A stretch of DNA of 64,000 nucleotides from a virus. The translations under genes and the position numbers were made by a program. The notes below the pieces were generated by a model, which saw nothing but the letters and a program-made list of their open reading frames with translations, did no database searches and was not told the DNA's origin. This document shows positions 468 to 64,000 of the stretch, piece by piece (the first letter of the stretch is position 1; each line of letters starts with the position of its first letter). The DNA lies in IMG/VR virus record IMGVR_UViG_3300029922_000007, positions 102,170-166,169 of that record, one strand, 5' to 3'.

Positions 468-532
468 ACGTTTTTGAAGTTCCTAACTTCGGAGGTATCC
501 ACCCCCAGCTTCGATATTTCAATCGGTAATTA

Positions 533-554
533 GGGGCAGACTTTCATCTGCCCC
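533..554 (-). terminator. Stem-loop after the 576-aa fibre gene (possible terminator or processing site)
   Basis: GGGGCAGA-TGAAAG-TCTGCCCC on the minus strand just past the stop at 566; U-tract is weak. Confidence 0.45.
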
Positions 555-565
555 ACTATTTTAAA

Positions 566-2296: not shown

Positions 2297-2305
2297 AAAA
2301 ATTCC

Positions 2306-3328
2306 TTAATTGTATTGAACTACGAGCATATCGCCCGAAACTAAAACCCCATCTAAGAATAATCCACTCCAACTAAGCTGAGAGCCGGAAACTGTGTAAT
2401 CTGCCCCATACGATTGCATAGGGCCGCCAATAACTGTAAGAATGGTATCGGCGGCTGTATCTGGAGCGGAACTAAGTGTTACAAATTTATTGGTAATGTC
2501 TGTACCAGACAAAGTAAATAAATTAACATTATAAGAAGATGCCAACATCGAATTAGTGATAGCGCCATTTGCGATACTTGTAGCATTACCAACACTTGTA
2601 ACTACACCAGTAAGATTAGCGTTTGTGGTGACGGTCCCGGCATTACCGGTAATACTCCCAGTAGGAATAACGTAATCTGTTCCAGCGGTGGCTGCTGAAA
2701 CGGCTGTACCGTTACCTTTAAGGAGCCCAGAGATAGTAGTCGAGATTGTGATAGCAGGGGTAGTAGTAGCTGTAGCTACGGTCCCCGCAAAACCGTTTGC
2801 AGAAACAACTGAGACAGAAGATACCGTACCTGATCCAGCTGCAGGAGTCATCCATGCGGGTAGACCAGAAACAACAGTTAGGACTTGTCCTGCAGACCCA
2901 ATCGGCAATCTAGCCGCTGCTGGAGTCGCATTTTCAAAAAGTATATCTCCAGCGGTAGTTAAAGGAGATAGAGCATTAAAAGAAGAAGACGTAGAAGTTT
3001 GGCCCGTTCCACCATTAGCTACTGGAAGAGCAGTTCCAGAAAGGGTTACTGCTAGGGTACCAGTGCTGGTGATGGGAGATCCTGAAACACTCAAGAAAGA
3101 TGGTACAGTTAATGCAACAGATGTGACTGTTCCAGAACCACTACCAGGACTCCAACTCAGATTCCCAGCTCCATCGTTGGTCAGAACGTAACCGGAAGAG
3201 GCGGCTTGGGCTGGAGGCCAGAAAATAGAATACGTTGTAGTTACTGCGGAAGCAAATTGAGTTATAGAGCCAGAAGTGGCTCCGCTTAGTTGAGATTTAG
3301 CGCTAGTAGAAGATGGATTGTATGACAT
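2306..3328 (-). CDS. Tail fibre/appendage protein (paralogue of 566-2296)
   Basis: Shares GTVTSVALT, LPVANGGTG, SANGFAGT and the C-terminal GGP-x-Q..DYTV..LVSGD module with its neighbour. Confidence 0.8.
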   Translation of the reverse strand: MSYNPSSTSAKSQLSGATSGSITQFASAVTTTYSIFWPPAQAASSGYVLTNDGAGNLSWSPGSGSGTVTSVALTVPSFLSVSGSPITSTGTLAVTLSGTALPVANGGTGQTSTSSSFNALSPLTTAGDILFENATPAAARLPIGSAGQVLTVVSGLPAWMTPAAGSGTVSSVSVVSANGFAGTVATATTTPAITISTTISGLLKGNGTAVSAATAGTDYVIPTGSITGNAGTVTTNANLTGVVTSVGNATSIANGAITNSMLASSYNVNLFTLSGTDITNKFVTLSSAPDTAADTILTVIGGPMQSYGADYTVSGSQLSWSGLFLDGVLVSGDMLVVQYN

Positions 3329-3329
3329 A

Positions 3330-6278
3330 TTACAGAATATCCCATCCTGAGCCGTTGGAAGCTAAAGTAAACGATTCGTACTGAACATTTTCATATTGGG
3401 CGCTGAATCCATCGATTAAATCCGATCCAAACGCGTTGATGTTTAGGTAATTTGACGTACTGTCAACCTTTTTTAGGTAGAAAATTCTTCCAGTTACGGT
3501 AGAAGCGGCTGGTAAATCAAAGTTAACTACTCCAGCAGTGCAATCCGCGCGTAAAATACAGTCGCCTGTAAGAACAGCGTAGGTAGTTGGACCGAACTTA
3601 GTGGAAACAGAAACGGGAGTCATGCTTCCGTTCAGTCCTGGAGCGCCAGGAGCACCAGCCGGACCAGCAGGACCGACAGCGTTAGCTCCATTGCCTCCTC
3701 CGCCACCAAGCCTAATTTCAACTTCGTCCCCAATAACTAAGCCGCCGCCAGGAAGAGTAAGAATCTGAATTTGATTAGAAGGAGTTCCAGGTGCGCCAAC
3801 TTCAGCGTAAGCTCCGGACTCCAAATCCATGAACTGACCGTTCAAGAATAAGAGGAGCGACCCTGCTCCAACAGTATACTGTTGTGGGATATTTCCTTCT
3901 CTGCTATTGTTAGGAAGAGTAAGGAAACTTCCATTAGCAACGGGACCATTCAAACTGGTCGGTGGGGTTGCGCCTGATGCGACTATCTCGATAACTTCAT
4001 CGTACGAAGGAGAATCCAAGAGGGCTTGGATATTCCCAATAGCTTTATCTAGCTCTTTGATAGCTAAGGTCAAACTATCGGAGTCATGTATAACGTAGTT
4101 ACCAGTGCCAGTCCCGGATTGAGAAGTAGTGATCGCAAATGGAGCGCCAACGTTTACATTGCTAGCACCATTCGAAGTTCCTGCAGATGTATTGGTTACT
4201 ACAAGTGTGCCAACCCCAGAAGTAGCTGAAAAGTCTCCAAATGGAGCTGAATTCAGAGCAAGAGCCAACTTTGTTGCAACTTGAGTGGCTGTATCTCCAG
4301 TTAAGATGTCCACTTCAATAATAGCATTCGTATTTGGAGCTACAGGAGCACTACCTACACCGCTAACTTTGAACCAAACAGCGTATTCGCGAGCGTCTGC
4401 AGAAGAGCTAATGAGGAAATACTGACCGCCAGTAATAGTTGATCCACCACCAGTGGTAAAATCGGAGATCTGAACGGTAGATCCTGGATTCATAGCCGCT
4501 ACATATTGTGGCTTAGAAGATGACGCCGATGGAGAACCGATATATTGCAGAAGCTCAAGAGAGGTAGTTCCGGAAACAGATACACTCTCGCCATTATCAA
4601 GTTCTTGTGATAGGAAGCGAATGTAAACTTTAGGATTTCCCCCATTGTCTTCTCGCAGGAACAGCCAGAAAACATCGGCCCCTACTGGAACAGAGGCGCG
4701 GGACGAAATTTGAATAGCGCGGGTATCGCCAACTGGAGATGGCGAAGCATGATAAGAGCCAAACGCATACTGGGCTTGAGATCCGCCAGCACCAGAATTG
4801 TCCCCAGCCGAAACATTGCTCGTAAGGGTAACTTGAGATCCAGAATTGACTGTCAAGATCTGGTAATAACCGGAAGAAGTATTTGAAGCGACCTTAATAA
4901 AGTCACCGGGAAGTAGTCCAGAAGTCCAGGTTACAGCGCCAACAGAATTGACAGTTGGGGAACCTGAAACAAAAATCAGGTTTGGAGCGATAGGGACTTC
5001 TCTATTAAGGAGAATATAGGCTACTTCATCATCCGTAAGTGTTATATCGGTAGAAGAAGGATTAGCAGCAATAGTATAGGTGAGGGAAGATCCGATGACA
5101 CGAATTTCAATCGGTTGATCCCAATTGATCTGCCCTGGAGAAGTGATAGCGCTCGGACTATAGAAACTTACGCCAATTCCAGTACCGTTTAGGGTAGCTG
5201 GTTGGGACATGGTAATCGTAGACCCAGCGATAGAAAGTATGGTAGCCCCTTGAGGAATACCAGTACCGAAGATGAAGTCCCCATTAACTAATCCAGCAGT
5301 AGAAGCTAGAGAGGTTAACTGATTGCTAGTGACAGCTATATTTCCGGTGGTAACTAGGATAGGATCAGAATTAGGTAGAATCCCGTTAGAAATTTCACCA
5401 CTGCCGGTAATAACAGTATTCCCGAGATCCTGGAAAAGACTTTGCAGGGAGGGAATTGGACCACCTCCACCGCCGCCTGCTCCTGAGAACCAATAGGGCG
5501 TGCCCTTGATTCCAAGAAGTTCGGACATGATGGCGTTCATCCAAGATTTCAGGCTGTCTAGTTGTTTATCGCCGCCTATAAAGGGGTTAGCGGAGCTATT
5601 AGTAGCACTGATGGTTACTGGAGACTGGGTTTGCCCTTGGCTCCAAGGATAGGTGAAGTTAGGGTTAGGGCTAATTCCACCAGTTTCGAGGGAATAGAGC
5701 ATCCAGCGGGGATCGGTGATAGTTAGGACGTTTCCGTTAGAATCTGTGGTTACGATAGCTGCTGGGAGGACGTTTTGAGCCCAAGGAGAGGTCGTGATGA
5801 TGATTTTGTAGGTGAGGGTTTGGGCTTCAGGTGCTATCTCAGTTATTTCGTCGTTGGCGGTTGCGTTCCAGATGTACTTGGTTACGTCTGTGCTAGGATC
5901 AGCGAATCGATTGTAATCAATACCCACATAGTTCGTGCTGGAAGCTGTGAAGGATCCGGAAACATTAGGATTTGTGGCTGCATTTAGGACCTGGTTAGCG
6001 GTCCCAAGTGGTACCTGGAAAACGGTGCCGCTGGCCGACGCATCAATATTTAAAATAGAGCCTGGGTCTACGATCATCTGTAGGCCGTTTGCGGCGGAGC
6101 CAATAGCTCCGGACGTAACCAGTGAGAACCCGCGAATGATGTAACCCTGCGAAGTTCCAGTAATAATGGCGGTTACTGCAGCATCCCAATCAGAACGGGA
6201 AGCGCTTTCGATGCGCCTAAGGCTGCTCACATCCAGGCGTTGCTCGCTCAAAATGTTAAGAGTGCTTAATACTGCCAT
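3330..6278 (-). CDS. Large baseplate-associated fibre/structural protein
   Basis: 982 aa, beta-rich, short collagen-like GPAGPAGAPGAPG stretch, C-terminal LPAAS..GRIFYLKKVD..SNGSGW fibre-type domain. Confidence 0.75.
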   Translation of the reverse strand: MAVLSTLNILSEQRLDVSSLRRIESASRSDWDAAVTAIITGTSQGYIIRGFSLVTSGAIGSAANGLQMIVDPGSILNIDASASGTVFQVPLGTANQVLNAATNPNVSGSFTASSTNYVGIDYNRFADPSTDVTKYIWNATANDEITEIAPEAQTLTYKIIITTSPWAQNVLPAAIVTTDSNGNVLTITDPRWMLYSLETGGISPNPNFTYPWSQGQTQSPVTISATNSSANPFIGGDKQLDSLKSWMNAIMSELLGIKGTPYWFSGAGGGGGGPIPSLQSLFQDLGNTVITGSGEISNGILPNSDPILVTTGNIAVTSNQLTSLASTAGLVNGDFIFGTGIPQGATILSIAGSTITMSQPATLNGTGIGVSFYSPSAITSPGQINWDQPIEIRVIGSSLTYTIAANPSSTDITLTDDEVAYILLNREVPIAPNLIFVSGSPTVNSVGAVTWTSGLLPGDFIKVASNTSSGYYQILTVNSGSQVTLTSNVSAGDNSGAGGSQAQYAFGSYHASPSPVGDTRAIQISSRASVPVGADVFWLFLREDNGGNPKVYIRFLSQELDNGESVSVSGTTSLELLQYIGSPSASSSKPQYVAAMNPGSTVQISDFTTGGGSTITGGQYFLISSSADAREYAVWFKVSGVGSAPVAPNTNAIIEVDILTGDTATQVATKLALALNSAPFGDFSATSGVGTLVVTNTSAGTSNGASNVNVGAPFAITTSQSGTGTGNYVIHDSDSLTLAIKELDKAIGNIQALLDSPSYDEVIEIVASGATPPTSLNGPVANGSFLTLPNNSREGNIPQQYTVGAGSLLLFLNGQFMDLESGAYAEVGAPGTPSNQIQILTLPGGGLVIGDEVEIRLGGGGGNGANAVGPAGPAGAPGAPGLNGSMTPVSVSTKFGPTTYAVLTGDCILRADCTAGVVNFDLPAASTVTGRIFYLKKVDSTSNYLNINAFGSDLIDGFSAQYENVQYESFTLASNGSGWDIL

Positions 6279-51643: not shown

Positions 51644-52074
51644 TTCAGGACCTCTTTAAAGAATTCTTCGTGTTCCTCTTCTTGGATAGCCATATCTAAG
51701 AGTAGCCCATAGGTAACTGTTTTGTCAAGGCCGTTACACTCCCTAGAAATTCGGTAGTAGGAGATTGACCCAAGTTTTTCGATCAATCCCGCGCCCCACA
51801 TAGCCACTCTATAGGACATAACTCTACAAGAAACGGAGATAGTCCTACCGATGAGCCAAAATACTCTATCTAGGAATGGACTTGGCTTAGCTTCTAACGA
51901 TTGCAGGATAGCCTCTACATACAACTTATGAGTCAGTTCTTCCAACCGGATTATCCTAAGTTCGGTCTTAATTCGACCGTGCGGCAAAGAAGCGATATGC
52001 CCAGTGTAGGCTTCCATGGCACCGACTTCCATCGCGTGGGCTTGTTGGAGCATACGAATCAATTTCTTATTCAT
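51637..52074 (-). CDS. Ferritin-like di-iron protein (Coq7-like)
   Basis: E..A..AY.GH, EExxH, IE, EEEH motifs. Confidence 0.7.
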   Translation of the reverse strand: MNKKLIRMLQQAHAMEVGAMEAYTGHIASLPHGRIKTELRIIRLEELTHKLYVEAILQSLEAKPSPFLDRVFWLIGRTISVSCRVMSYRVAMWGAGLIEKLGSISYYRISRECNGLDKTVTYGLLLDMAIQEEEHEEFFKEVLKW

Positions 52075-53093
52075 TGGGTCTCCCTAACGATCTTAGAGTA
52101 CACTTCATAGACGAAATTGTCAGCCCATTCTCGATCTGGCTCATCTCGAAGGGTAGATTTTTCATGGGCAATGTATAGATCGGCCAATCCCTGTTCAATC
52201 ATTTCTGCTACCTCATCGTAGGGAAGTTGGCCGAGTTTAACCTTCAAAAGAAGGTCGCGATCGGGACGAGGAAAGGTGATATGACCCGTATTTAGCAATT
52301 CCAGAGCTTCGCCGTTAACCCTCAGGCAATGTGAGATCGCCTTCCAGTCTTTGCCGCCCGCAATATGAGCCTTTTCAGCTCTAGCTCCATAGCTATCCAG
52401 CATCTTACCTACGATATCCTTGGCATACTTTACCGTAGCATGAAAGGGGATAGAGCGACCGTTTACTTTAAGGTGAGGAGCATCCAGTTCACCTTTAGGT
52501 CCTTTAAGCATTACAATTTCAATAAGCGGAAGTTTCTCAAGAGAAATAATGTCTCTAGATTGTTCCACAAGAGTCTCAAGATATGGACGGTAATCGTTTA
52601 AAGTAGCTCTAGGTGCCGTGAAATCTTCAAGCAATGCTGCGGTGCGTTTAAGGGCATCCATACGAGAACCTTTAATCCCATATTTGGCACATTGCTGTTT
52701 TGCATACCCAACGAACGCGTTAACGTTGCGAGTTAGAAGCTTATCTTTGTTGTCTTTGATAGTTCTCCATATGGTCAATCCTGGAACTTTCCCGTCATAG
52801 GTCCTGTAATAGGATTCCTCCATTGGAGCGAAGATCATATCGAGCGCGACCGTCTGTCCTTGCATTAGAAGGTCAAGATACCGATCAAGACTAAAAACTT
52901 CAACGTCTATATCGTCCTTAGTATTACGTTCACAAGTAGCCTTTGGGCGACATGTAGCGATAGTCTTCTTATAGGTACCAAGAACGATCTCTTTGGCGGT
53001 TGGAAGATAGATACCCTTAAAGTCTAAATCAGAATTTTCCGTATTGGTACCGTACAAGTGACTTCCGAATTTAATTTCTAGAATTTTATTCAT
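52071..53093 (-). CDS. Pol-beta superfamily nucleotidyltransferase (RlaP-like)
   Basis: FGSHLYGTNTENSDLDFKGIY; DWKAISH.LR..E..ELL.TG.ITFPRP..LL.VK.G. Confidence 0.85.
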   Translation of the reverse strand: MNKILEIKFGSHLYGTNTENSDLDFKGIYLPTAKEIVLGTYKKTIATCRPKATCERNTKDDIDVEVFSLDRYLDLLMQGQTVALDMIFAPMEESYYRTYDGKVPGLTIWRTIKDNKDKLLTRNVNAFVGYAKQQCAKYGIKGSRMDALKRTAALLEDFTAPRATLNDYRPYLETLVEQSRDIISLEKLPLIEIVMLKGPKGELDAPHLKVNGRSIPFHATVKYAKDIVGKMLDSYGARAEKAHIAGGKDWKAISHCLRVNGEALELLNTGHITFPRPDRDLLLKVKLGQLPYDEVAEMIEQGLADLYIAHEKSTLRDEPDREWADNFVYEVYSKIVRETQ

Positions 53094-53265
53094 TCCACTT
53101 ATCCAATTCTTCGACTGTGTAGGTAAACGCGGCATTGTGAGAGACGGATATCGTTCGATAGTTGTCAGTAATCAGTATTACCGTTCCGTCTGCATAATAA
53201 GTTTCTGGATCGTCATCGTGCCAATAAGGGACTAGGGCTGCTTGACTTAAGGGGTATTTATTCAT
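53086..53265 (-). CDS. Hypothetical protein
   Basis: 59-aa ORF MNKYPLSQAALVPYW...; read by eye. Confidence 0.5.
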   Translation of the reverse strand: MNKYPLSQAALVPYWHDDDPETYYADGTVILITDNYRTISVSHNAAFTYTVEELDKWNE

Positions 53266-53401
53266 GAGTAAACCTTAAAAGCGCTTTTTGGGTCCACTAC
53301 CCAAAACTTATACTGCCAAAGACACTTAACTAGAATACCAATTGGCATAAAACGTACGATCCTAACAAGCCTGCCATTGATATCGAGTACATCGTCTACT
53401 T

Positions 53402-54472
53402 TCATTGCAGCACTTTCATGCTATTGCCATCTGGCCTGATCTGTTTTAGTATGTAGCCATCGAGAGCATCGTTCTTCCCAAGAAGGAAAGGGAATATTCC
53501 TTGGCTATACTTCACATCGTTATTGGCCAAGTAAAGACCAACATTTTTACGCCAATCAGGCCCAAAATTCTTCAGATTGTGGGTAACTGTCTCAAGGGCA
53601 ATAGTAACGAGAACATTCTTATATTGCTGATCAAGTTCAGCAACGTAAGGCTCATAATCCTTACGAAGTTCTTCCGGGAGTTGCTGTAAGTATGTCTGAT
53701 CTACTTTGCCGCCCTTCATAGTTTCCCAGAGCGCGATTGGGGATAGGCTGGACATGAGTTTGGCGATTCGGAGATACTCTTTTCCTTTGATCTTAACGCG
53801 GGTTCCATTTTCAAAACGGACCACGAATCCTTCATCGTCCTTTGGTAAAGTTTCTTGGAGAGCGATCATTTCGGGGATAGTGTAGTTGTAACTCTTAGCC
53901 ATCCTCATGCCCATAGAAGCGGCCATATATTGAACGGTTTCGTGATCGTGCTCGTAACCATCGTTGCGGCGGAAGGCCCCAAGTAGAACCAACTCTTCCG
54001 TGTCTCCATAGTTAATTATGATTCGGTTCTGAGGGTAAATGATTTCAGCGAGAAGAGTCGTATTGGGCTCGATGGATGAGAGGTTGTATTTTTTGAGTAG
54101 TTCTGCTCCTTTGGCCGCTTGATCTGAATAGAAGCTACCGCGAGTAGAAACGTGCCATTCTCCCTCGTAGTGGAATATGATGCCAAGAGAGCCGTCGACC
54201 TTTTCTGAAACCGTATAGGGAAGATCTGGTAGATTTTTAAGAAATGTCTGCTCCATCTCACCCAAATTAAAAAATTTTGGTATGCATTTTCCGACAACGT
54301 CGCCAGTATCCTTATTTAAGATCAGTCCCCGAGCGATAAGTGTGTATTCGTCCCAAGCTCTTTCGAACGTACATTTATCGGTATAACCGTATAAAATCAA
54401 GGACTTATACTCACTCTTACGAAGGAATCCCAGTTCTACACGTTTTTCGAATTCTGATAGGTCGTATTTCAC
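53402..54472 (-). CDS. RNA ligase 1 (T4 Rnl1-like)
   Basis: ARGLI, KFFNLGE, EKVDGSL (adenylated K), TRGSF, EGFVV, RVKIK..Y. Confidence 0.9.
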   Translation of the reverse strand: MKYDLSEFEKRVELGFLRKSEYKSLILYGYTDKCTFERAWDEYTLIARGLILNKDTGDVVGKCIPKFFNLGEMEQTFLKNLPDLPYTVSEKVDGSLGIIFHYEGEWHVSTRGSFYSDQAAKGAELLKKYNLSSIEPNTTLLAEIIYPQNRIIINYGDTEELVLLGAFRRNDGYEHDHETVQYMAASMGMRMAKSYNYTIPEMIALQETLPKDDEGFVVRFENGTRVKIKGKEYLRIAKLMSSLSPIALWETMKGGKVDQTYLQQLPEELRKDYEPYVAELDQQYKNVLVTIALETVTHNLKNFGPDWRKNVGLYLANNDVKYSQGIFPFLLGKNDALDGYILKQIRPDGNSMKVLQ

Positions 54473-55338
54473 TAAAAATGCCCCTTCTCTCCAGCGCAGT
54501 CCAAAACTACAATTCCGTGGGATCTGATCTGGTCGATTACTTGCTTTCGATCATCCACGCAGAAGAGTAGATTATACTTAGTTTTGATCTCAAACTCAAG
54601 CATAATCTCCTTAACGATAGAGTCCTTTCGAGAATCATTAGTCCTGCGCATAATTAGCTGGTCGTAGGGAATATCATGGTATTTTAACCACTTCTCTGTT
54701 TGCTCTCTATAGTCTTCTGGACGACCTGAACAAATGAGAATATGGCTACAATAGCTCATGCCCACAGTCATTTTTTTACACCACCCATTTACTGGGTCTT
54801 CAGACATTCCCGCAAAGAAGGCAGGCCAATTCTTTTTAGGTCCTTGAACGTAGTGCTCTCTATGGGAAGCGTCAGACAGCGTATTGTCAGCATCCACCCA
54901 AATAGCTGGCGTCTTATAGCCTTCAGGCCAGCATCTCAAAACCCTATCGGCTTCCTCATCGGTAACGCGCTCGTATTTTGTAAAAAACATGTGTAGAGCT
55001 GACTTAGCATCGGTCTCGTTTTGAATGGTAAGATGGTCTTTACGTTCCATGCAGCGCTTAAAGCACGTATCGTAGGACTCATGAAGAACGGTAATGTGGG
55101 TACTATAGCCCAAAGCCTTAGCTGGATCTAAGTACCGATTCCGTTGACCTTTGGAGAAATTAAGGCGATCTACTACAATATCCTTGCCTTCTTGAAGGGC
55201 CAAGTTGAATAGGCGGAGATGATCTTTACCTTGAAGGTCTTGATTGATATACGTGACACCGCCCTTAGAACAATAGTCCAAAGCTAAGGTGGATTTCCCA
55301 GATCCTGGAGGGCCAACAAGCAATGTGAGTCTCTTCAT
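54472..55338 (-). CDS. pseT: Polynucleotide kinase/3-prime phosphatase (PseT-like)
   Basis: P-loop GPPGSGKS plus HAD DADNTL, SGR, K, DDR. Confidence 0.9.
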   Translation of the reverse strand: MKRLTLLVGPPGSGKSTLALDYCSKGGVTYINQDLQGKDHLRLFNLALQEGKDIVVDRLNFSKGQRNRYLDPAKALGYSTHITVLHESYDTCFKRCMERKDHLTIQNETDAKSALHMFFTKYERVTDEEADRVLRCWPEGYKTPAIWVDADNTLSDASHREHYVQGPKKNWPAFFAGMSEDPVNGWCKKMTVGMSYCSHILICSGRPEDYREQTEKWLKYHDIPYDQLIMRRTNDSRKDSIVKEIMLEFEIKTKYNLLFCVDDRKQVIDQIRSHGIVVLDCAGEKGHF

Positions 55339-55346
55339 ACTTTCAT

Positions 55347-55375
55347 AGTATGCCATAGGGTTAAGGGATGGTCAA
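55347..55375 (-). promoter_or_regulatory. Sigma70-type promoter of the PNKP-ligase operon
   Basis: TTGACC-17-CATACT with TG extension; ATG follows after 8 nt. Confidence 0.65.
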
Positions 55376-55383
55376 TATTTAAT

Positions 55384-55412
55384 TTGACTTCTTTCAAGAG
55401 ATAGGTTAACGT
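55384..55412 (+). promoter_or_regulatory. Sigma70-type promoter of the recombinase gene
   Basis: TTGACT-17-TAACGT; AGGAGG SD downstream. Confidence 0.6.
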
Positions 55413-55444
55413 TTTAAAAGGTCGGTAAAACAAAGGAGGTTCAA

Positions 55445-56038
55445 ATGAAAGGCTGCAGGAACTTAACGGACGAAGAGATTGTCAATGTTTACAACGAGCT
55501 AAGCACTCCAAGGGATAAGAATATGTTTCTCGTCGGCGTGCTTACAGGCCTAAGAATTAGCGAACTCTTGAGTCTAAGGGTAAAGGATGTTTACGAAAAT
55601 GGTCGAATGTCAGAATGGATCACCGTAGCTAGAAAGAATACTAAGGGAAAGATCGAATCCAAGACCTTGCCCATGGTGGATGAGGCTCGAAACTCTTTGG
55701 AGAAGTTCATAAGCTCAATGGAAAATCCTAAGCCTACAGATCCACTCTTCAAGTCAACTCAGGGGGATAAAGCTATCTCTAGGGTTATGGCCCATAAGAT
55801 TTTAAAGAAAGCGTTTACTTCCCTAAAGATGACCGGAAAGCTTAGTACTCATAGCTGTAGGAAATCATTCGCTCAGAGGATCCATAAGGAGCTTGGAAAT
55901 CGAATTGAGAGAACACAGGTAGCTCTTTGCCATAAAAGCTTGTCGAGCACGGTTAGTTATATTCAGGTTGATAGGGAAGAAGTTGAGAATGGTATTCGGA
56001 ATGTTGGTGGATTTTTGGCTGGGAAGATTGTGGGGTAA
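55445..56038 (+). CDS. Tyrosine recombinase (catalytic domain only)
   Basis: TGLRISELL (R), TKG (K), HSCRK, CH, SY. Confidence 0.9.
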   Translation: MKGCRNLTDEEIVNVYNELSTPRDKNMFLVGVLTGLRISELLSLRVKDVYENGRMSEWITVARKNTKGKIESKTLPMVDEARNSLEKFISSMENPKPTDPLFKSTQGDKAISRVMAHKILKKAFTSLKMTGKLSTHSCRKSFAQRIHKELGNRIERTQVALCHKSLSSTVSYIQVDREEVENGIRNVGGFLAGKIVG

Positions 56039-56656: not shown

Positions 56657-57131
56657 ATGGTTTACCCTGAAACAAGTACACTTCCCTCTTCACCTTCCAA
56701 ATTTGAGCCTTGTTTGGGGTATAGCAGGCAAAGAAGTATCCTTTAGGCGTAAGATGAATTTCGAAGTTCTTAGGCTCACAAGCCATCCAAAGTCTAGGCT
56801 CAAGTCGAACGAGGTGGGTTGGGCTACCCATGTTCTTAGCGCACTCTACGACGATATCGGAAACTAGTTCCAGGAGAGATTCTTTAAAGACTTCTACGGT
56901 TGGAATGTGCTGTAGGAAGTCGTAAGGAGTTAAAGGAAGCGAGTAATTTAGCAGAACAGCCGTACACCTGCGAAGAGGAGATTCGTAAAAGGATGAGCGC
57001 CCTATTCTTTTATAATATTGGAGATGGTGAGTGTCCCATTTATTTTCTCTAGTGGGAATGAGCTTTATGAATTCCTTGAGAGAAATAGGACTGACTGACC
57101 CAAAAGAAGTGTTGATGATGCTAGGGTTCAT
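56646..57131 (-). CDS. Hypothetical protein
   Basis: TAATG-coupled to an upstream leaderless 24-aa ORF (57131-57205). Confidence 0.65.
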   Translation of the reverse strand: MNPSIINTSFGSVSPISLKEFIKLIPTRENKWDTHHLQYYKRIGRSSFYESPLRRCTAVLLNYSLPLTPYDFLQHIPTVEVFKESLLELVSDIVVECAKNMGSPTHLVRLEPRLWMACEPKNFEIHLTPKGYFFACYTPNKAQIWKVKREVYLFQGKPYGE

Positions 57132-57212
57132 TAATACCTCGTAACCAACCAAAATAGTTGAAGTGTTGCAAGTTTTTCTTCGAGTTCTTCGTAAGAAGGT
57201 TTCATAAGGAAC

Positions 57213-57241
57213 ATCTTAGCACCAAGGACGGACTTGTGCAA
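57213..57241 (-). promoter_or_regulatory. Sigma70-type promoter (leaderless)
   Basis: TTGCAC-17-TAAGAT with TG extension; ATG follows after 7 nt. Confidence 0.65.
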
Positions 57242-57244
57242 TAT

Positions 57245-57542
57245 TTTTCTTGGGCGTAGCCCAAGGGGCGCAGTGCCCCTTCAAGTACGTTGCAACTGAT
57301 GCAAAATGGGCGTCGACTCTTGGTAGGTAGTTGATACTATGGGTGTTTTATGGAGTGTGGATGGGCTAGATCGCTACTTCTAGCTTTGGTGGGTATTTAT
57401 CAGATTCATTTCCCACCGCCGACGTGTCGGGCCGGTAGACTGCTCCAAGGGTAGTGCCGTTCGCGGGACACGATTCCGAGTCACACCTTTCGGTGAAGAA
57501 CCTTCTAGTTATTTATATCCCTATCTACAATCAATCTCATCC
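57245..57542 (-). ncRNA. Candidate structured non-coding RNA
   Basis: Own promoter TTGACA-16-TATCCT (57549-57576); only an 11-codon ORF at the 5-prime end; nested stems including CACC-GAAA-GGUG. Confidence 0.45.
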
Positions 57543-57609
57543 AAGGCTAGGATATCAAAATGGGGAAGGGTGTCAAGCTTTAGATTTCTTTGGCCGAAGG
57601 CCAAGGGGG

Positions 57610-58527
57610 TTATAGGATCCCGTTGGCGAGTTTATACGCGTCCCATTCTTCGGGCGATTTATCTCTCTTGAGAAAATTATCTTTTTGCCATAAAGGCTGG
57701 AAATTTGAGAAATGGTTCAACCTGTATAGGTCTTCCACGCTTTTAGCCTCGGCCATGGGCGTGATGTGGTCGATATTCCACTTATCTTCGCCGTAGCCGT
57801 AGTTATCCCAGGACATGCCTGGTTGCCAGAGGGACTCTAAGTGGGCCTTAAACTCTTGCGAGTTGCAACCAAGGTAAAGACTTAGCTTAGAACTTTTTAC
57901 GAAGCCATTGTACTTAGTGGCACCGCTAACAGCTCTTCTAATATTGTCGGCCAATTTAACCATAGGGTTTTCTTGGCGCTTCTTTCTTCTTTTGGCGTTT
58001 AGGGCGTCCCTATTTTCTTCGTGATACTTTCTAGTCTTAATTTTTCGTTTTTCTCTGTGTTTGTAGTGGGATGCTCTTTGCCCTTCTGCTCTTTTTTCTG
58101 GATCTTTCGCTTTATATTCTTTATTGTAATCTGAGCGACATTTTTTACAGTCCGCCGACAGTCCATGAAAACCTCCCGCACTTTTATTGAAGAATTCTTT
58201 AGTTTCTTCTTTTAATATTAAGCACTTAGAGCAGTTCTTAAACCCAGGAAGAGGAGCTTCGTGCTGAAATCTTTTAGGCCTACCTGGAGGCCTACTCGTT
58301 TGTTTTGATTGGGACTCTTCGTTCTTTCTCGGGCGACCCCGTGGTTTTCCGTTAGGAACGTACCCCTGGGAATGCCGTTGCGCTGCATACAGTTGCATGC
58401 AGTTCTTACACCAAGAGGATAGGCCGCTTTTTATTTTAACGTTGATGTTAAAATCGGCTACCGGAAGATTTTGGCTACATTTGGAACAGTTTTTATGGCC
58501 ATCGATTATAGAGAATTTGGTATTCAT
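57610..58527 (-). CDS. HNH-type endonuclease with Zn fingers and two AT-hooks
   Basis: KxCSKC repeats; KPRGRPRK and RPPGRPKR; LGC...HLE....GMSWDNYG..WNIDHI.P..H.SN.QPLW..DN..K. Confidence 0.85.
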   Translation of the reverse strand: MNTKFSIIDGHKNCSKCSQNLPVADFNINVKIKSGLSSWCKNCMQLYAAQRHSQGYVPNGKPRGRPRKNEESQSKQTSRPPGRPKRFQHEAPLPGFKNCSKCLILKEETKEFFNKSAGGFHGLSADCKKCRSDYNKEYKAKDPEKRAEGQRASHYKHREKRKIKTRKYHEENRDALNAKRRKKRQENPMVKLADNIRRAVSGATKYNGFVKSSKLSLYLGCNSQEFKAHLESLWQPGMSWDNYGYGEDKWNIDHITPMAEAKSVEDLYRLNHFSNFQPLWQKDNFLKRDKSPEEWDAYKLANGIL

Positions 58528-58758
58528 AAATGTTATATATCATAGGATTTTTTTAAAAAAATATTTTTGTACATAGGATGATAGGTAATGAAAATATTTA
58601 GAAATTTTAAAGACGTTTTCATGTCCGTATTACTCGGGTGAAGTGTGTCGTAGGTGACACAGACCCCGGTAAACGGGTATTATGTCAATCATTTCATATA
58701 CTTAAACCTGTGTCAGTCTCCTGCGACGCAGGGATGTGTCGCCTATTTTAAATGCATG

Positions 58759-58791
58759 GGCAATATACGTGCCGAATCAATAACCGTGCCA
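58759..58791 (-). promoter_or_regulatory. Sigma54-type -24/-12 sites (tandem)
   Basis: CGGCACGTATATTGCC (58759-58774) and TGGCACGGTTATTGAT (58776-58791, one mismatch). Confidence 0.55.
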
Positions 58792-59389
58792 TTGCGTCAT
58801 ATGCGCTATAGGGCGTTATAGACGACGCACTGTTACATGACGCCATTGCATAGGCCGATACGCTGAAGGAGCGCCATAGCCTTGCAATGCCTCAATAGGT
58901 CAAGTCTAATAGGATGCATTAGACGCGGTTAGATAGGCGCGGCGCAGTGCTCGCTTGAGTGTGTCATGATGGACACGGGTTGTGAGCGCTCGTTTGAGGT
59001 AGGTTTCGGCGTGGTTAACATTATCCTATATCGTATACCGTATGGATAACTAATTAGAATTTAAAGAGAATATAGAATCTCGTTTTATAGCGCGGTGCCA
59101 GTCAATCGACCGTTATCATTAGACGCACGAATGCACCGCAAAACCATGGTCAAGCGATGCATAAAACGATTGATATTTTTGGCGCTCATAACGCTAGGGC
59201 CAATATATGAGATATGAGAGATATCCGGCCTAGACTTCTCCCATACCCTAACGCTAAGATTGACTGTTTTTGGCCCATATCGCATATAGCTTAGCTTAGC
59301 GTTTAAGTAATGATCAAATGTACTGACAATGATCATATTTCGCCCTAACTCCATTCATTTTTCCCTAATGAATGTATCTATTATCCCTT

Positions 59390-59405
59390 TGGCATATCGT
59401 CTGCA
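59390..59405 (+). promoter_or_regulatory. Sigma54-type promoter heading the early region
   Basis: TGGCATATCGTCTGCA (GG-N10-GC). Confidence 0.5.
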
Positions 59406-59415
59406 ATAACTCATG

Positions 59416-59790
59416 GTGTCCAGTTTGATTTAAACCGCTAGTAACTCGACTAAGCCTAACCCGCATACCGCACCATTGTTTTACATGGGTTAGACTTCCA
59501 AGGGTTTACACGTCTAGGTATCCCTGTACCAGACTTTGACGCTAGCAGGATATCCCACAATTCTATCGGCACTGGCGCATGCGCGGTCGATACGGTCAAG
59601 GGGATTAGACGACTAAGGCTCTAAATATTGACTCAAGTATTTGACTTCATTAAATAAAACTTTCATTGCGTTTTAACTAACGCATCTAATGGCATGTTGC
59701 AACATGCCTAACGCCTCATACCGGGTTAGCAATGACTCGGTATGAGGTCCCGCCTTTGTCCTATTGAGTCTGATAACATGTTGAACGTAT
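59416..59790 (+). ncRNA. Candidate structured RNA / long 5-prime leader
   Basis: Multiple nested stems with G-U pairs on the plus strand; 15-bp stem with a GCAA tetraloop at 59714-59747. Confidence 0.5.
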
Positions 59791-59799
59791 GAGGTACTT

Positions 59800-60006
59800 A
59801 TGATCAAGGTATACGCTAAGATAGGTAAACGGTATTTTGCCAGTGAATATAAAGCCGACCGTCAAGGTAATTTGCGTGAAGGTTCGGTTAAATCGTCTGA
59901 AACTAAATTAGTTGCTAGGGTTTATGACTCGGTAGACTTGGTTATCAGGGATGCTAGGCTTTTAGGTGTATCCCTGGATTGCATTGAATTCGAAAAAGCA
60001 GCATAA
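59800..60006 (+). CDS. Hypothetical early protein
   Basis: GAGG SD. Confidence 0.7.
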   Translation: MIKVYAKIGKRYFASEYKADRQGNLREGSVKSSETKLVARVYDSVDLVIRDARLLGVSLDCIEFEKAA

Positions 60007-60033
60007 CTTTTAACAGTCTGAAAGGATATTCCA

Positions 60034-60261
60034 ATGAAACTAGGCATCTATATCGACGATAATGGTCAAGTCATTGAAATCTTTAACGATACTCCGAATA
60101 TTCGATTGGAGCAAGCCGATGGTTTCGTAGAAGTTCAAACACTGCGGAATGACGGGAATGAAACAGAAGTTACTGGCTCGTATGTGTTCTATCAATTGGT
60201 TACCGATCTTAAAATGATTAAGGCGGCTATGAAGCTAGTTCCTAAGAGGTCTAAGGCCTAA
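60034..60261 (+). CDS. Hypothetical early protein
   Basis: AAGGA SD. Confidence 0.7.
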   Translation: MKLGIYIDDNGQVIEIFNDTPNIRLEQADGFVEVQTLRNDGNETEVTGSYVFYQLVTDLKMIKAAMKLVPKRSKA

Positions 60262-60333
60262 CCGATGCATTCCCTTATAACCGCACGTAACTTTGAGTCT
60301 TTTTTGTCTAATAACCCTACTAATGAGGTATCT

Positions 60334-61116
60334 ATGTCTAATCAAGTTGTTAAGTTGTCCGGCTCATATGTCCAAGACCAACGTCATACCAATGTATCTA
60401 ATCGTTTCAACGTTATTCAGCCTAGCGCAGTAGGGGATGCTATGGCGCGTCATGGCTTGCAACTTGCTTCATTGTCTACCGGTAAAGCACGTCATGTTGA
60501 TAAGCTTGATTTTCAGCGTACTTTGTCTCGGTATCGTGGCGCGGAAATTATGCCGGGTATTCATATCGATATCATTCATTCCGGTTATCATATGGGGCGC
60601 GGCGTGGATTCGTTTTCGGTCGGGTTTTATCGCATTGTCTGTACTAATGGTTTGCAGACTGGTACTAGCTTTGATCGTTTTGAGGTCCGGCATTCGGGCG
60701 ATACGTTTTTGAACCTGGACAATGCAATTGCGGCATGCCTTGAATCTAAAGAACGCTTGACGGCCACAATTGAACGTATGAAGTCTACTGTCTTGACTCC
60801 GGAACAACATGTTGAATTCGGTGCGCAAGTTGCTAGACTTCTAACTCCTAGCGGTGCATTGCGGGTTAAGCATCGGCTATTGACGCCTAAACGCGATGAT
60901 GATAAGGGTTTTGGCTTGTTTGAGGTCTTGAACGTTGCTCAAGAGTCTGGAATGCAAGGCAAAAACGTTGTTTACGAATTGCCCACTGATAAGCTTGATT
61001 CTAGTGGTCAAGCTAAGGTCCGCACCATGACTGCTAGGGCGATTAAGCCTAACTCGGCGAAAGACGAGGAGTTTAATTCAGCTATTTTTGACCTTGCATT
61101 GAAATTTGCGGCATAA
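60334..61116 (+). CDS. DUF932/DUF945-family protein
   Basis: VSNRF..I; GFYRIVCTNGL..G; VRH.G; L.P.R.DD...LF...NV.QE; GAGG SD. Confidence 0.8.
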   Translation: MSNQVVKLSGSYVQDQRHTNVSNRFNVIQPSAVGDAMARHGLQLASLSTGKARHVDKLDFQRTLSRYRGAEIMPGIHIDIIHSGYHMGRGVDSFSVGFYRIVCTNGLQTGTSFDRFEVRHSGDTFLNLDNAIAACLESKERLTATIERMKSTVLTPEQHVEFGAQVARLLTPSGALRVKHRLLTPKRDDDKGFGLFEVLNVAQESGMQGKNVVYELPTDKLDSSGQAKVRTMTARAIKPNSAKDEEFNSAIFDLALKFAA

Positions 61117-61130
61117 TCGTTTGATATCCG

Positions 61131-61162
61131 GGAGTTACGGCCTAGCGCTGTAACTCCCTTTT
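61131..61162 (+). terminator. Intrinsic terminator/processing hairpin
   Basis: GGAGTTACGGC-CTAGC-GCTGTAACTCC followed by CTTTT. Confidence 0.7.
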
Positions 61163-61175
61163 ATAGGAGTGTGTC

Positions 61176-61337
61176 ATGGTAGACGCAATTAAGGTTAGCA
61201 CTAGCGTTTTAGACCTAACTGGTATCGGCACTGAATACCTAGTGTCTGAAGATGGTACCGTAATTGCTAAGTTTTACAATGGTCAATTTGCGCTGGATTG
61301 TCCGCGCGGTAACTTAGACCAAACCATTGCAGCATAA
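61176..61337 (+). CDS. Hypothetical protein
   Basis: AGGAG SD; 53 aa MVDAIKVSTS...; read by eye. Confidence 0.6.
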   Translation: MVDAIKVSTSVLDLTGIGTEYLVSEDGTVIAKFYNGQFALDCPRGNLDQTIAA

Positions 61338-61354
61338 CAAAGGGAGATTTTAAA

Positions 61355-61825
61355 ATGTCTAATAAATACAAGCTTCTTTCTACTGATACTAAAATCAATT
61401 GGGATGGAAAAACTCTTTATAGGATTCAAGCGCTTATCAATATCGGGAGTGTTTTAGCCGGTACTTTAGGCGGATATATCGAAAAAAAATCTAACCTATC
61501 TGTATCCGGCAACGCATGGGTCTCTGGCAACGCACTGGTATCCGGCAACGCACTGGTATCCGGCAACGCACAGGTATCCGGCAACGCACTGGTATCCGGC
61601 AACGCACTGGTATCCGAGAAAAAACATTGCTATGTGTTTCATTGCGAAAGTTACTCTATGACAGTAACTCCTCAAAATATCTCAATTGGTTGCCAGTTAA
61701 AAACGCATAAAGAATGGTTGAAAGTAACTAAAAAACAAGCTATCACAATGGGATTGCAAGCTAATCTCTATGAAACCTATAAGGGACTAGCTAAAATTGG
61801 AATGAAAGCAGTTAAACTCAAGTAA
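61355..61825 (+). CDS. Hexapeptide-repeat (left-handed beta-helix, YdcK-like) protein
   Basis: LYRIQAL..G.LGGYIE..NL then (VSGNAx)6. Confidence 0.85.
   Translation: MSNKYKLLSTDTKINWDGKTLYRIQALINIGSVLAGTLGGYIEKKSNLSVSGNAWVSGNALVSGNALVSGNAQVSGNALVSGNALVSEKKHCYVFHCESYSMTVTPQNISIGCQLKTHKEWLKVTKKQAITMGLQANLYETYKGLAKIGMKAVKLK
61502..61616 (+). repeat. 18-bp tandem repeat, about 6.4 copies
   Basis: GTATCCGGCAACGCACTG units. Confidence 0.95.
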
Positions 61826-61851
61826 TCGATAGGCTAAACAAGGGAGTTTTT

Positions 61852-62250
61852 ATGTTTAAAATCAATAGTATATCTCGTTTTAGTTCGGATACTGTCAAGG
61901 TTTCAATTGACTGCAATGCGCGTGCATGGGCGATAGCTAAAAAGACTGGCACGCTAGGCACGCTATACGGTATTGACGTATCTAATGCGGTGTATCAAAT
62001 GCATGGGGTTAAGGCTAGCAATCCGACCGTATCGGACGATAAAAGAGCTAGTATGACAGGGGTTAAGTCTATTGATCTTTATTACCGTGATTCCGAATGG
62101 TCCGCGCCTATCGATAACGTTATCCGCATGCCTAACCTTTTTGCCTCTAATGCCAGTGCTAAGGCTATTCGAGGGGATGGAGCTAGTCCTACGGATAGTG
62201 TGAATAATGTTATTGCGGTCGATTTCATTAATCGCCGCAAAATCGCTTGA
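61852..62250 (+). CDS. Hypothetical protein
   Basis: GGGAG SD. Confidence 0.7.
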   Translation: MFKINSISRFSSDTVKVSIDCNARAWAIAKKTGTLGTLYGIDVSNAVYQMHGVKASNPTVSDDKRASMTGVKSIDLYYRDSEWSAPIDNVIRMPNLFASNASAKAIRGDGASPTDSVNNVIAVDFINRRKIA

Positions 62251-62261
62251 AAGGGGATAAC

Positions 62262-62627
62262 GTGTTTAAATCATATAGGGAATTTACCTTGGATAAGCCA
62301 GTTAACACTAAACGTCTAAAGGTTAGGCATATACACGATACAAAATCTAAATTAGCTTGCACAATCGTACAGTTACACAATACTGACGTGGTACATAGGG
62401 TAAACGTCAATAATGTTGTGACCTTGAATAGTGGCGGATGGAAAACACCTAGCACTAAGGTCACAATGAATACGGCTATGCGTTTAATCTATGGGTCAAT
62501 TGCGCCATGCATCTATCAAAGCAAGGGTAAATGGTACGTGGAATTTAACAATGGAGATATTGAATTGTATTTTGACGGTATGATTATCGGTGGCGGATGC
62601 GGCGCACCATTTGCCGTATTGAATTGA
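62262..62627 (+). CDS. Hypothetical phage early protein
   Basis: AGGGG SD before GTG; LH.T.V..TLNSGGW.T.STK..MN motif. Confidence 0.7.
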   Translation: MFKSYREFTLDKPVNTKRLKVRHIHDTKSKLACTIVQLHNTDVVHRVNVNNVVTLNSGGWKTPSTKVTMNTAMRLIYGSIAPCIYQSKGKWYVEFNNGDIELYFDGMIIGGGCGAPFAVLN

Positions 62628-62635
62628 GGGATACT

Positions 62636-62875
62636 ATGCCAAAGTTAACAAAGGTTCAAGTCAAAGCAATGCAAGACGTATGCCACTATATCTTAGACTG
62701 TACTGATGCGGACTATGACGATTATGTACAGTATTGTGACGATTATGGTTATGATCCTGCTAAGATACGCGGCAAGGGGCAGAGTAAACACGTATACGCT
62801 AAGGCTTATCGCACTGTTAACCTTGCAACGTTGCGCCGCGTATCGCTTGACGGTACGTCATACACGGTAGTTTGA
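62636..62875 (+). CDS. Hypothetical protein
   Basis: GAGG SD. Confidence 0.65.
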   Translation: MPKLTKVQVKAMQDVCHYILDCTDADYDDYVQYCDDYGYDPAKIRGKGQSKHVYAKAYRTVNLATLRRVSLDGTSYTVV

Positions 62876-62900
62876 TCTAAGCTAGTTAACTCTCAATTGA

Positions 62901-62971
62901 CGGTATCACTTCGACCGCTAGGTTTTGCTATAGGACACGATTAGAGGTCAATAGCGGTCGAAGTGATACCG
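62901..62971. repeat. Perfect 20-bp inverted repeat with a 31-nt spacer
   Basis: CGGTATCACTTCGACCGCTA ... TAGCGGTCGAAGTGATACCG. Confidence 0.95.
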
Positions 62972-63214
62972 GGTTAGGGCGATAGCCTATCGCGCTGTTT
63001 TTGACTCCCTGCTAGGCATGCGGCGCGAGTCAATACCGTGACACGGCTATTACATTATATAGCTGTTAAAATTTCAAGTATTCCCGACACATGGGTTACT
63101 ATCGCTATGCCTTGATTGACACATTGCGTTAATTTCGGCCCAGTCTTTTTGGACACACCCCCTGTGTCAAATCGGATTTTTACCCTGGATCTTTTTCCCT
63201 AATAGGAGATTTTT

Positions 63215-63544
63215 ATGGACGTTCGTCGTGGTCAATGGGTTAGATTCGACTGTTTTAAGTTAGTTGAAGACGATAAAGGGAAGTATACAGGAGAATTAGC
63301 TTCAATCCATTGCTATTATCGTATTATGGGTATTTCTAAGGCTAAGGGTATGTTCACCGTAGAATATCCCGACTACGTATTTAGCCTTGATGATGGGTCG
63401 GTACTGTATGGTGACGAAAAATGTCCGCATGTTGGCTCAGTATCTCCTCTTAACATTGAAGATATGATTTGGCTTAATGAGGTATTGAATGAATCCCCTC
63501 AAGCTATTATGATTGAAGCTAGGGGAGAATACTACCGAGTATAG
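63215..63544 (+). CDS. Hypothetical protein
   Basis: AGGAG SD. Confidence 0.7.
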   Translation: MDVRRGQWVRFDCFKLVEDDKGKYTGELASIHCYYRIMGISKAKGMFTVEYPDYVFSLDDGSVLYGDEKCPHVGSVSPLNIEDMIWLNEVLNESPQAIMIEARGEYYRV

Positions 63545-63569
63545 TTTAGGGTAGGGGGTATGCAAAAAT

Positions 63570-63636
63570 TGGCCTATCCCTTGCATCTATCCCAAAAGTG
63601 ATTTTTGGGTAGGGGTATGTTGGAATAAGGCTTGCA
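63570..63636 (+). promoter_or_regulatory. Two sigma54-type promoters
   Basis: TGGCCTATCCCTTGCA (63570-63585) and TGGAATAAGGCTTGCA (63621-63636), each preceded by GGGTAGGGG(G)TATG. Confidence 0.6.
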
Positions 63637-63702
63637 TTATATTTTAGTTCAGTAGTGAATTTTCTCAAAAGTGAATTTTATCAAAGGAGTTAGGGTGTCT
63701 CT

Positions 63703-64000
63703 ATGAAACTGCAAATTAAGAATCGGTTTACGGATCTTGTTATTTTTGAAGCTGATACTGCGGATATGAAAGCCTTAGTTCTATTGGCTATCGCTTCCGA
63801 TATCTCTCTGTCTGGGGCCAACCTGTCTGGGGCCAACCTGTCTGGGGCCAACCTGTCTGGGGCCAACCTGTCTGGGGCCAACCTGTCTCGGGCCAACCTG
63901 TCTCGGGCCAACCTGTCTCGGGCCAACCTGTATGGGGCCGACCTGTCTCGGGCCTACCTGTCTGGGGCCTACCTGTCTGGGGCCGACCTGTCTGGGGCCA
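63703..64000 (+). CDS. Pentapeptide-repeat protein (partial)
   Basis: [12 protein letters not shown] then ([10 protein letters not shown])n. Confidence 0.9.
63808..64000 (+). repeat. 15-bp tandem repeat, at least 12 copies
   Basis: CTGTCTGGGGCCAAC and variants. Confidence 0.95.

Follow-up and report, generated by a model that had tools for sequence, protein, structure and literature searches.

Textbook accounts of early phage transcription rely either on the host sigma-70 acting at strong constitutive promoters or on a phage RNA polymerase that is injected or encoded. Among bacterial sigma factors, sigma-54 alone is unable to start transcription without an ATP-driven activator, and its enhancer-dependent promoters with a site for integration host factor (IHF) include pspA of E. 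coli, nifH of Klebsiella and Pu of Pseudomonas putida. Here we analysed the last 64 kb (64,000 nucleotides, the window) of IMGVR_UViG_3300029922_000007, a 166,169-bp IMG/VR phage contig that is rated complete by CheckV, in which an earlier reading of the letters (the original prediction) had placed five sigma-54-type promoters in a presumed early region. We consider it likely that these five sites, together with a sixth, are this phage's members of an RpoN-type -24/-12 promoter family that marks the early region of its clade. The clade consists of uncultured soil and peat phages of about 160 kb that are distantly related to Myxococcus phage Mx1. Positions are those of the window unless given as genome positions.

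As in pspA, nifH and Pu, the clade's sites have the -24 GG and the -12 GC 10 bp apart in a TGGCAC-N5-TTGCW consensus and no -35/-10 boxes, together with, in the relatives, an upstream dyad site and an IHF consensus between dyad and core. Unlike those promoters, they are found in a virulent-type phage genome, before small early open reading frames (ORFs); the relatives' module takes up far less space, the upstream element being fixed at about -78 and IHF at about -40; the clade's cassette is repeated 4-7 times per genome; an activator gene is absent both nearby and elsewhere in the phage; and the phage studied here has the core only. The early promoter cassettes of T4 (PeSL, promoter-early stem-loop units) are strong sigma-70 promoters for which an activator is not needed. 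The sites resemble them in being repeated promoter units, sometimes with hairpins, before small fast-evolving early ORFs, and as in T4 the early regions are mosaic among close relatives.

In the lytic Pseudomonas phage YuA, a promoter has been assigned to the host sigma-54 (Ceyssens et al. 2008, cited in PMC10914365), and YuA has a single sigma-54-like promoter (P015) beside sigma-70 and phage-specific ones. Unlike in YuA, the motif is borne here by the entire early region of many related phages, with conserved accessory sites. For the Salmonella phages FelixO1 and Aji_GE, host rpoN affects infection in a metabolic, RpoS-mediated and glutamine-rescued manner (bioRxiv 10.1101/2020.04.27.058388), which differs from the present case in that the effect is indirect and without phage sigma-54 promoters. 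The literature searched, with subscription journals outside its coverage, gave YuA P015 as the only precedent for a phage sigma-54 promoter (PMC10914365), and no account of an early phage regulon that relies on such promoters. First genes placed behind sigma-54 promoters would tie the start of infection to the signalling state of the host, and this would represent a new kind of host-sensing checkpoint or a pointer to an unfamiliar way of opening sigma-54 complexes.

The sites surround a divergent junction, at which minus-strand genes end at 58527 and are followed by 1.27 kb of non-coding DNA and then by plus-strand small ORFs; gene content, the sole basis for its timing, suggests that the region is early. 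The -24/-12 elements and the boxes next to them are as follows.

58760-58774, minus strand: -24/-12 element CGGCACGTATATTGC (13.3-13.8 bits; predicted transcription start site about 58748)
58777-58791, minus strand: -24/-12-like element TGGCACGGTTATTGA, upstream tandem copy (predicted start about 58765)
59352-59374: inverted repeat CATTCATT-N7-AATGAATG, read from the sequence, directly 5' of the 59390 core
59390-59405, plus strand: -24/-12 element TGGCATATCGTCTGCA (14.7 bits; predicted start about 59416)
63549-63562, plus strand: G-rich box GGGTAGGGGGTATG, 5' of the 63570 core
63570-63585, plus strand: -24/-12 element TGGCCTATCCCTTGCA (12.8-13.4 bits; predicted start about 63596)
63593-63606, 63652-63663 and 63666-63679, plus strand: three copies of the box (C)AAAAGTGA(A/T)TTTT (family D20)
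63607-63619, plus strand: second G-rich box GGGTAGGGGTATG, with a counterpart in relative L035
63621-63636, plus strand: -24/-12 element TGGAATAAGGCTTGCA (12.5-12.7 bits; predicted start about 63647)
Genome 2789, just beyond the window end: sixth intergenic site TGGCACGAGGGATGCA

A sequence check located all five of the claimed sites, on the strands assigned to them and, as claimed, all in intergenic DNA, and also the G-rich repeats said to precede the last two. Compared to TGGCAC-N5-TTGC, 58760 and 58777 have one mismatch each, while 59390, 63570 and 63621 have two each with GG and GC intact. GG and GC are both kept in four of the five sites. The remaining one is 58777, whose single mismatch had been correctly reported but falls on the near-invariant -12 C (GC to GA), making this site the weakest candidate by itself. 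Site 58760 is the downstream member of a tandem pair that points at the minus-strand endonuclease VII/Lar-like block. Site 59390 is the first on the plus strand, within the 1.27-kb non-coding region ahead of the early plus genes, and its predicted leader (59416 to the ORF at 59800) is about 385 nt long. The predicted start at about 63596 falls within a CAAAAGTGATTTTT box, and that at 63647 would give a 56-nt leader with AGTGAATTTT boxes and a Shine-Dalgarno (SD) sequence, followed by a pentapeptide-repeat gene. It should be noted that the contig is broken inside this gene (ATG about 63703). Thus, the plus-strand small-ORF block resumes at genome position 1 and runs to about 5650, and the sixth site lies outside the window.

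In order to compare the sites with chance, matches in the window were counted by mismatches and set against shuffled controls, and they are more frequent than chance. At up to two mismatches there are 63 matches window-wide vs. 41.5 ± 6.5 in shuffles, and at up to one mismatch 9 vs. 2.7. We then split an approximate position weight matrix (PWM) into its -24 and -12 halves and varied the gap between them, using a threshold of at least 12 bits. The early region, defined as 10.2 kb (genome 160697-166169 plus 1-4700), has 11 matches at the sigma-54 gap and 0-3 at any other, in line with the claimed concentration of sites there, while the remaining 156 kb of the genome has 19 vs. 3-18 at other gaps. 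These gap-specific counts indicate that the excess in the early region is real, local and spacing-specific.

Five of the early-region matches were judged unlikely to be promoters. The one at 60453 encodes a conserved DUF932 peptide, HGLxLA; that at 61253 is intragenic; those at 62670 and genome 1425 are antisense; and that at genome 1779 falls within a lipoprotein signal peptide. The lipoprotein in question (genome 1735-2331, L027) has a collagen-like G-x-y stretch, and its signal-peptide coding sequence carries a perfect TGGCACTGGTATTGCA, which shows how good chance or coding matches can be. After removal of these five, the originally predicted intergenic sites and the one at genome 2789 remain.

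The early regions of related phages were retrieved via alignment of DUF932 homologues. In six IMG/VR relative loci (81 kb), there are 44 matches at the sigma-54 gap vs. 3-13 elsewhere, and many of the cores are near-perfect, e.g. TGGCACGGGCATTGCA. Eight further close metagenome loci give 40 vs. 3-8. The 71 distant DUF932 loci (481 kb) show no excess, with 48 matches at the sigma-54 gap vs. about 60. Myxococcus phage Mx1 has neither strict sites nor DUF932, and it was dropped as a positive example. The motif is also recovered when it is not specified beforehand: an unbiased count in the relatives' early regions ranks GCA-N7-TGC and GGC-N8-TGC near the top of the gapped dyads, and the best motif returned by a Gibbs sampler from 88 upstream regions is TGgCA-N7-tGCAaT. 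GGCA-N7-TGCA occurs 53 times, compared to 2-5 times for other spacings, while GGCA..GGCA, TGCA..GGCA and TGCA..TGCA occur 3-6 times each and palindromic forms are rare. Since the enrichment is limited to the ordered GGCA-N7-TGCA, these half-site counts exclude a palindromic or direct-repeat site for a transcription factor. A codon-phase artefact was also ruled out, as gaps of the same phase (1, 7 and 10) are not enriched.

In position and orientation, the sites of the clade are promoter-like. They run along the gene block in 43 cases and against it in 9 (p = 2e-6); 26 of 52 lie outside long ORFs, in DNA that makes up 33% of the bases; and 18 of 68 are found 25-79 nt 5' of an SD-led start, vs. 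13% for random positions. Among the 47 co-oriented sites, G-25, G-24, G-13 and C-12 are 98-100% conserved, followed by T-14 (98%), T-26 (96%), C-23 (94%) and A-22 (94%), values that are partly imposed by the PWM used for selection. In the complete relative G001, all five exact occurrences of TGGCAY-N6-TGCA fall on the early strand in a stretch of 9.4 kb, and in G002 none of the six is farther than 10 kb from a contig end. With the wrong spacing (N7), there are just 5 scattered matches over the records of five relatives, three of which are 96-100% complete.

A further comparison is provided by G006, the closest relative by capsid (87% identity to the capsid protein of this phage). Its early DNA is unrelated, yet its early block has 7 co-oriented matches, several of them 35-53 nt 5' of ORF starts. 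Between G006:41676-54158 and genome 160-166 kb plus 1-8 kb there is no detectable DNA similarity, while the flanking synteny is preserved; by this comparison, the early module appears to be swapped wholesale between close relatives. Taken together, these results support the view that the sites form a conserved, spacing- and strand-specific -24/-12 family concentrated in the early regions of the clade.

The six intergenic cores of this phage have positional counterparts in relatives. The tandem minus-strand pair (17 nt apart) corresponds to syntenic pairs in L003 (4362/4379, 17 nt) and L035 (836/852, 16 nt), and to single sites in L001 (7415) and L004 (3474). The relatives likewise have plus-strand sites in the large non-coding region 5' of the DUF932 cluster. 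The GGGTAGGGG boxes are genuine and have counterparts in L035, where homologous layouts are found as ggggtgggcaggggtcaaaaat-TGGCAT at 6575, matching 63570, and ggtagggagcgggtcaaaat-TGGCAC at 6961, the counterpart of 63621. The sites of the pentapeptide-repeat gene and the two L035 sites share the order G-rich box, tcaaaaat, core and AAGTG(T/A)TTTT box; in L035, cagAAGTGTTTTTTcga follows both homologous cores as the counterpart of the (C)AAAAGTGA(A/T)TTTT box. The TGGCCTA variant of the 63570 core recurs in L003, L004 and G006. Finally, genome 2789 and L002 14709 both have TGTCATAATGGG at -41.

These counterparts bear on the possibility that in this phage the five sites have decayed to relics or match by chance, with its early genes served by unrecognised promoters of sigma-70 or another type and the family functional only in relatives. 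The sites are indeed weak, at 12.5-14.8 bits vs. 16-19 bits in relatives, and one has GA at -12; the early region of this genome has neither the upstream dyad nor the IHF site that are described below; matches of comparable quality occur in the genome's coding DNA; and a TTGACC-N18-CATAAT match is found at 61088-61117. Nevertheless, about 2.3 kb of early intergenic DNA contains six correctly oriented matches, compared to roughly 0.3 predicted by the counts at other spacings, sigma-70 matches are not enriched, and the tandem pair (L003, L035), the G-box composite (L035) and the TGTCATAATGGG composite (L002) all have positional counterparts. We therefore regard decay or chance as an unlikely explanation. 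On the -24/-12 promoter reading, this phage appears to represent the weak, variant end of the family, with cores only and other boxes upstream, and its sites may be less strong, be activated in another way or have partly decayed.

In the relatives, the core is part of a larger module that consists of a dyad, TGTMTAAAAGTTCTACA, at about -86 to -69, an IHF consensus at -43 to -31 and the core at -26 to -11. The upstream element, (c)TGTMTAAAAGTTCTACA, has imperfect dyad symmetry (TGT-N11-ACA). In 7 phages, 10 promoters carry its AGTTCTAC at exactly 50-52 nt on the 5' side of the T of TGGCA; for AGTT[CT]TAC at this distance, these 10 cases compare with 0.028 expected (p about 8e-23). Rarer offsets of 62, 104 and 114 nt correspond to one, five and six helical turns more. 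The IHF consensus WATCAA-N4-TTR begins exactly 17 nt before the core at 5 sites (0.11 expected), and at 12 sites if one mismatch is allowed (1.0 expected); its TTR end corresponds to a weakly conserved GTTAG 5' of the core. In many of the relatives' sites, an SD sequence and start codon follow 12-45 nt downstream of the -12 GC, e.g. TGCAttgtatagttaagaggtaactATG; this distance agrees with transcription beginning 12 nt past the GC, and it disagrees with a sigma-70 -10 reading.

In six IMG/VR phage contigs, there are 17 copies of the composite AAAGTTCTACA-N41-42-TGGCAY-N6-TGCA, up to five of them in one genome, compared to about 0.1 expected by a rough estimate. Among 185,579 bacterial and archaeal species (one genome each), it has 1 match, on a phage-like contig of 40% GC. 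This contig, L147 (CAZIWB010000034.1), belongs to a Cellvibrionaceae metagenome-assembled genome, is 55 kb long and has small divergent ORFs and one composite 5' of a lipoprotein gene. It probably represents a clade phage that was binned with a gammaproteobacterial assembly. No capsid gene was found in that assembly, and thus a Cellvibrionaceae host is a weak hint. The cassette, with dyad, IHF site and core at fixed distances, is short and sharply defined; it is directly testable even though the phages are uncultured, and it provides a sequence signature for finding members of the clade and narrowing down their hosts.

The structure of the module also helps to judge whether the motif is recognised by a factor specific to the phage, be it sigma-like, RNA polymerase-modifying or an asymmetric DNA-binding regulator, its likeness to sigma-54 sites being coincidental. 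Such a factor would account for the lack of an encoded activator in the phages tested (see below), for the extra conserved T at -5, A at -10 and G/T at -35 and -32, which are not known to be part of the sigma-54 consensus, and for an upstream element at fixed distance, as in class-I-type activation. However, about 12 positions agree with sigma-54 promoters: GG and GC are invariant and separated by exactly 10 bp, and secondary preferences of such promoters are kept as well (Y at -21, R at -20, T at -15/-14 and A/T at -11). Furthermore, the IHF site and upstream dyad make up a textbook sigma-54 layout; Mx1 is annotated with a sigma factor beside a helicase gene, yet lacks the motif; and the earliest genes cannot need a factor that has not yet been made, unless the virion carries it. 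A phage-specific factor is therefore quite improbable. We regard the sigma-54 reading as quite probable for the clade, and as somewhat less so for the weak sites of this phage.

We also considered, and rejected, sigma-70 readings of these elements. If nTGGCA is taken as the -35 and TAGATA as the -10, a spacer of 12 nt is left; with the upstream TTGACT as the -35, three or four sites can be fitted, but the invariant GG and GC are left unexplained. The upstream dyad yields no consistent -35/-10 pair.

The original prediction had also called for a search for a phage-encoded bacterial enhancer-binding protein (bEBP), and none was found in this genome and five relatives: Sigma54_activat (PF00158) has no match above cut-off in these six, and Sigma54_DBD (PF04552) none in the five phages tested. 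The two P-loop candidates that came up, the PNKP of the RNA-repair module (see below) and an RFC/Rad17-like clamp-loader AAA protein of G001, are not bEBPs. With neither a bEBP nor a sigma-54 gene in the tested phages, dependence on host RpoN together with a host activator follows naturally, and this would most likely apply. If these are sigma-54 promoters, the ATPase must be host-derived or something not yet recognisable.

In the proposed mechanism, host RNA polymerase with sigma-54 would form a closed complex on TGGCAY-N5-YTGCA. An ATP-hydrolysing enhancer-binding protein, presumably the host's, would then open this complex, and transcription would start about 12 nt after the GC, just 5' of the ribosome-binding site. 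Judging from the geometry, a U-turn induced by IHF (bend at about -50) could fold the protein bound to the upstream element (centre at about -78) onto the -24/-12 region. We tentatively propose, with some doubt, that the clade has handed its early genes to the host's enhancer-dependent sigma-54 by means of a miniaturised, repeated cassette, having no activator of its own. If so, infection would fire only when a given host ATPase activator is active, e.g. one that responds to the damage that infection does to the envelope or to RNA. Another possibility would be that sigma-54 complexes are opened by a new, non-AAA+ phage factor. The IHF consensus and the use of sigma-54 would point to a proteobacterium-like host in the wide sense, myxobacteria included. 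The Myxococcus and Cellvibrionaceae groups both possess sigma-54.

A different use of the same sites would be to bind sigma-54 holoenzyme mainly as stable closed complexes, which act as a roadblock, an insulator or a sigma-54 sink rather than as productive promoters. The missing activator gene would fit such a role, as would the arrays of sites in non-coding DNA (7 in 1.5 kb in L004), the intragenic, antisense and face-to-face sites, and the position of the sites at genome 2789 and L002 14709, about 30 nt 3' of a conserved TGTCATAAT extended -10-like box. Activation is favoured by the conservation of the upstream element and IHF site at a fixed phase, by a distance from the -12 GC to the SD-ATG that is often right for a short leader, and by the strong bias towards co-orientation. 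On balance, we consider the roadblock role very improbable.

Several points weigh against the promoter interpretation. The PWM is an approximate one, based on the published consensus. No upstream element by a core and no IHF consensus at the right offset were found in this phage's early region, where the upstream boxes are instead the G-rich box, TGTCATAATGGG and short palindromes. Matches as good as its own sites occur in coding DNA elsewhere, at genome 16627, 29208 and 65688. Within the clade, about 40% of the co-oriented sites fall inside naively called ORFs, and arrays of up to 7 sites, as in L004, are odd for simple promoters. Face-to-face core pairs at L036:976-1058 and L034:2601-2687 form long imperfect palindromes (TGGCA..TTGCAAT.GCAA..TGCCA), with T-runs after them in L036, and look like terminator hairpins made of promoter sequence. 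The position of the activator site is fixed and close (-78), which is tighter than in textbook enhancers. Finally, we know of essentially no precedent for an enhancer-dependent sigma factor that serves the first lytic transcripts.

The claim that the region has no convincing sigma-70 promoter was borne out as far as enrichment is concerned, since TTGACA-N16-18-TATAAT gives 14 matches vs. 14.6 expected in 58400-64000; a single such promoter may nevertheless be present. Sigma-70-like matches have a flat distribution genome-wide and do not define a distinct 'middle' class, so that the suggested three-stage programme of sigma-54, sigma-70 and CAATCTT stays a guess. The candidate late motif, CAATCTTA, has 21 copies in the genome, 19 of them on the minus strand and mostly before structural genes. 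One copy is located at 59255-59262 (minus strand), within the early non-coding region.

The genes next to the junction include the following.

57610-58527, minus strand: endonuclease VII/Lar-like gene of the minus-strand block
59800-64000, plus strand: early-type block of small ORFs, continuing to genome 1-about 5650
60265-61116, plus strand: DUF932 protein, within the early-type block

The early-type block also encodes a YdcK-type beta-solenoid protein and the pentapeptide-repeat protein. When the region was compared to cultured phages by megablast and blastn, pentapeptide-repeat matches were found and nothing else, and an Rfam scan of 57000-64000 gave no match. The major capsid protein of the phage shares 47% identity with that of Mx1, its nearest cultured relative, which infects Myxococcus, and about 26% or less with those of other cultured phages. 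An N4-like virion RNA polymerase was considered as well, but the 2746-aa protein concerned matches baseplate families and no polymerase.

Other sequence features of the region were also observed. The inverted repeat at 59352-59374 is a candidate regulator site. The three (C)AAAAGTGA(A/T)TTTT copies lie at or slightly 3' of predicted start sites, and further copies at genome ~871 and ~1025 are found directly 5' of an SD-ATG and have no sigma-54 core. In all, the box occurs five times just 5' of an SD-ATG (63593-63679; genome about 871 and 1025, L027), and it could be a leader element or processing site.

The palindrome TGTGTC-N6-GACACA is present at 58644-58661, 58960-58977 and 61170-61187, and in six copies within 200 nt of L001 (10894-11094). 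GTC-N6-GAC is the most enriched gapped dyad in the relatives' early regions (104 vs. 28). The palindrome flanks the tandem minus-strand sites here and in L003. It was rejected as a general enhancer, as L002, L004 and L006 have strong sites but lack it, and as its distance to the sites is not fixed; it is probably the operator of a separate regulator.

A conserved non-coding block lies 3' of the tandem minus-strand cores, at about 58560-58720 (minus strand), with counterparts at L003:4140-4312, L004:3395-3562 and L001:7190-7345. Its elements are ordered as GACACAGG..TAAGTA..TGATATCAGACA..CCCGGTTATCGGGG..palindrome..AAGCCCCCATGTACT..GACATGG. RNAalifold found no consensus fold in the four-sequence alignment of the block, which could be a leader or a small RNA. 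On the plus strand, the leader's non-coding 3' portion (59692-59800) shares 98-100% identity with L033, a 95% relative, and the coding DNA at 60052-60231 is less conserved (73-81% identity to L033). This part of the leader contains two perfect hairpins, GGCATGTTG/CAACATGCC and CCTCATACCG...CGGTATGAGG. Further downstream, a perfect 20-bp inverted repeat with a 31-nt loop (62901-62971) is located directly 3' of the ORF ending at 62875, and a second small hairpin with a T-run (62979-62993) is found 3' of it.

Finally, an RNA-repair module is found within 52071-56038. It includes an RlaP-like gene (52071-53135), a T4 Rnl1-type RNA ligase (53402-54472) and the PNKP kinase-phosphatase (54472-55356), and is adjoined on the opposite strand by a short tyrosine-recombinase (Phage_integrase) ORF (55445-56038).

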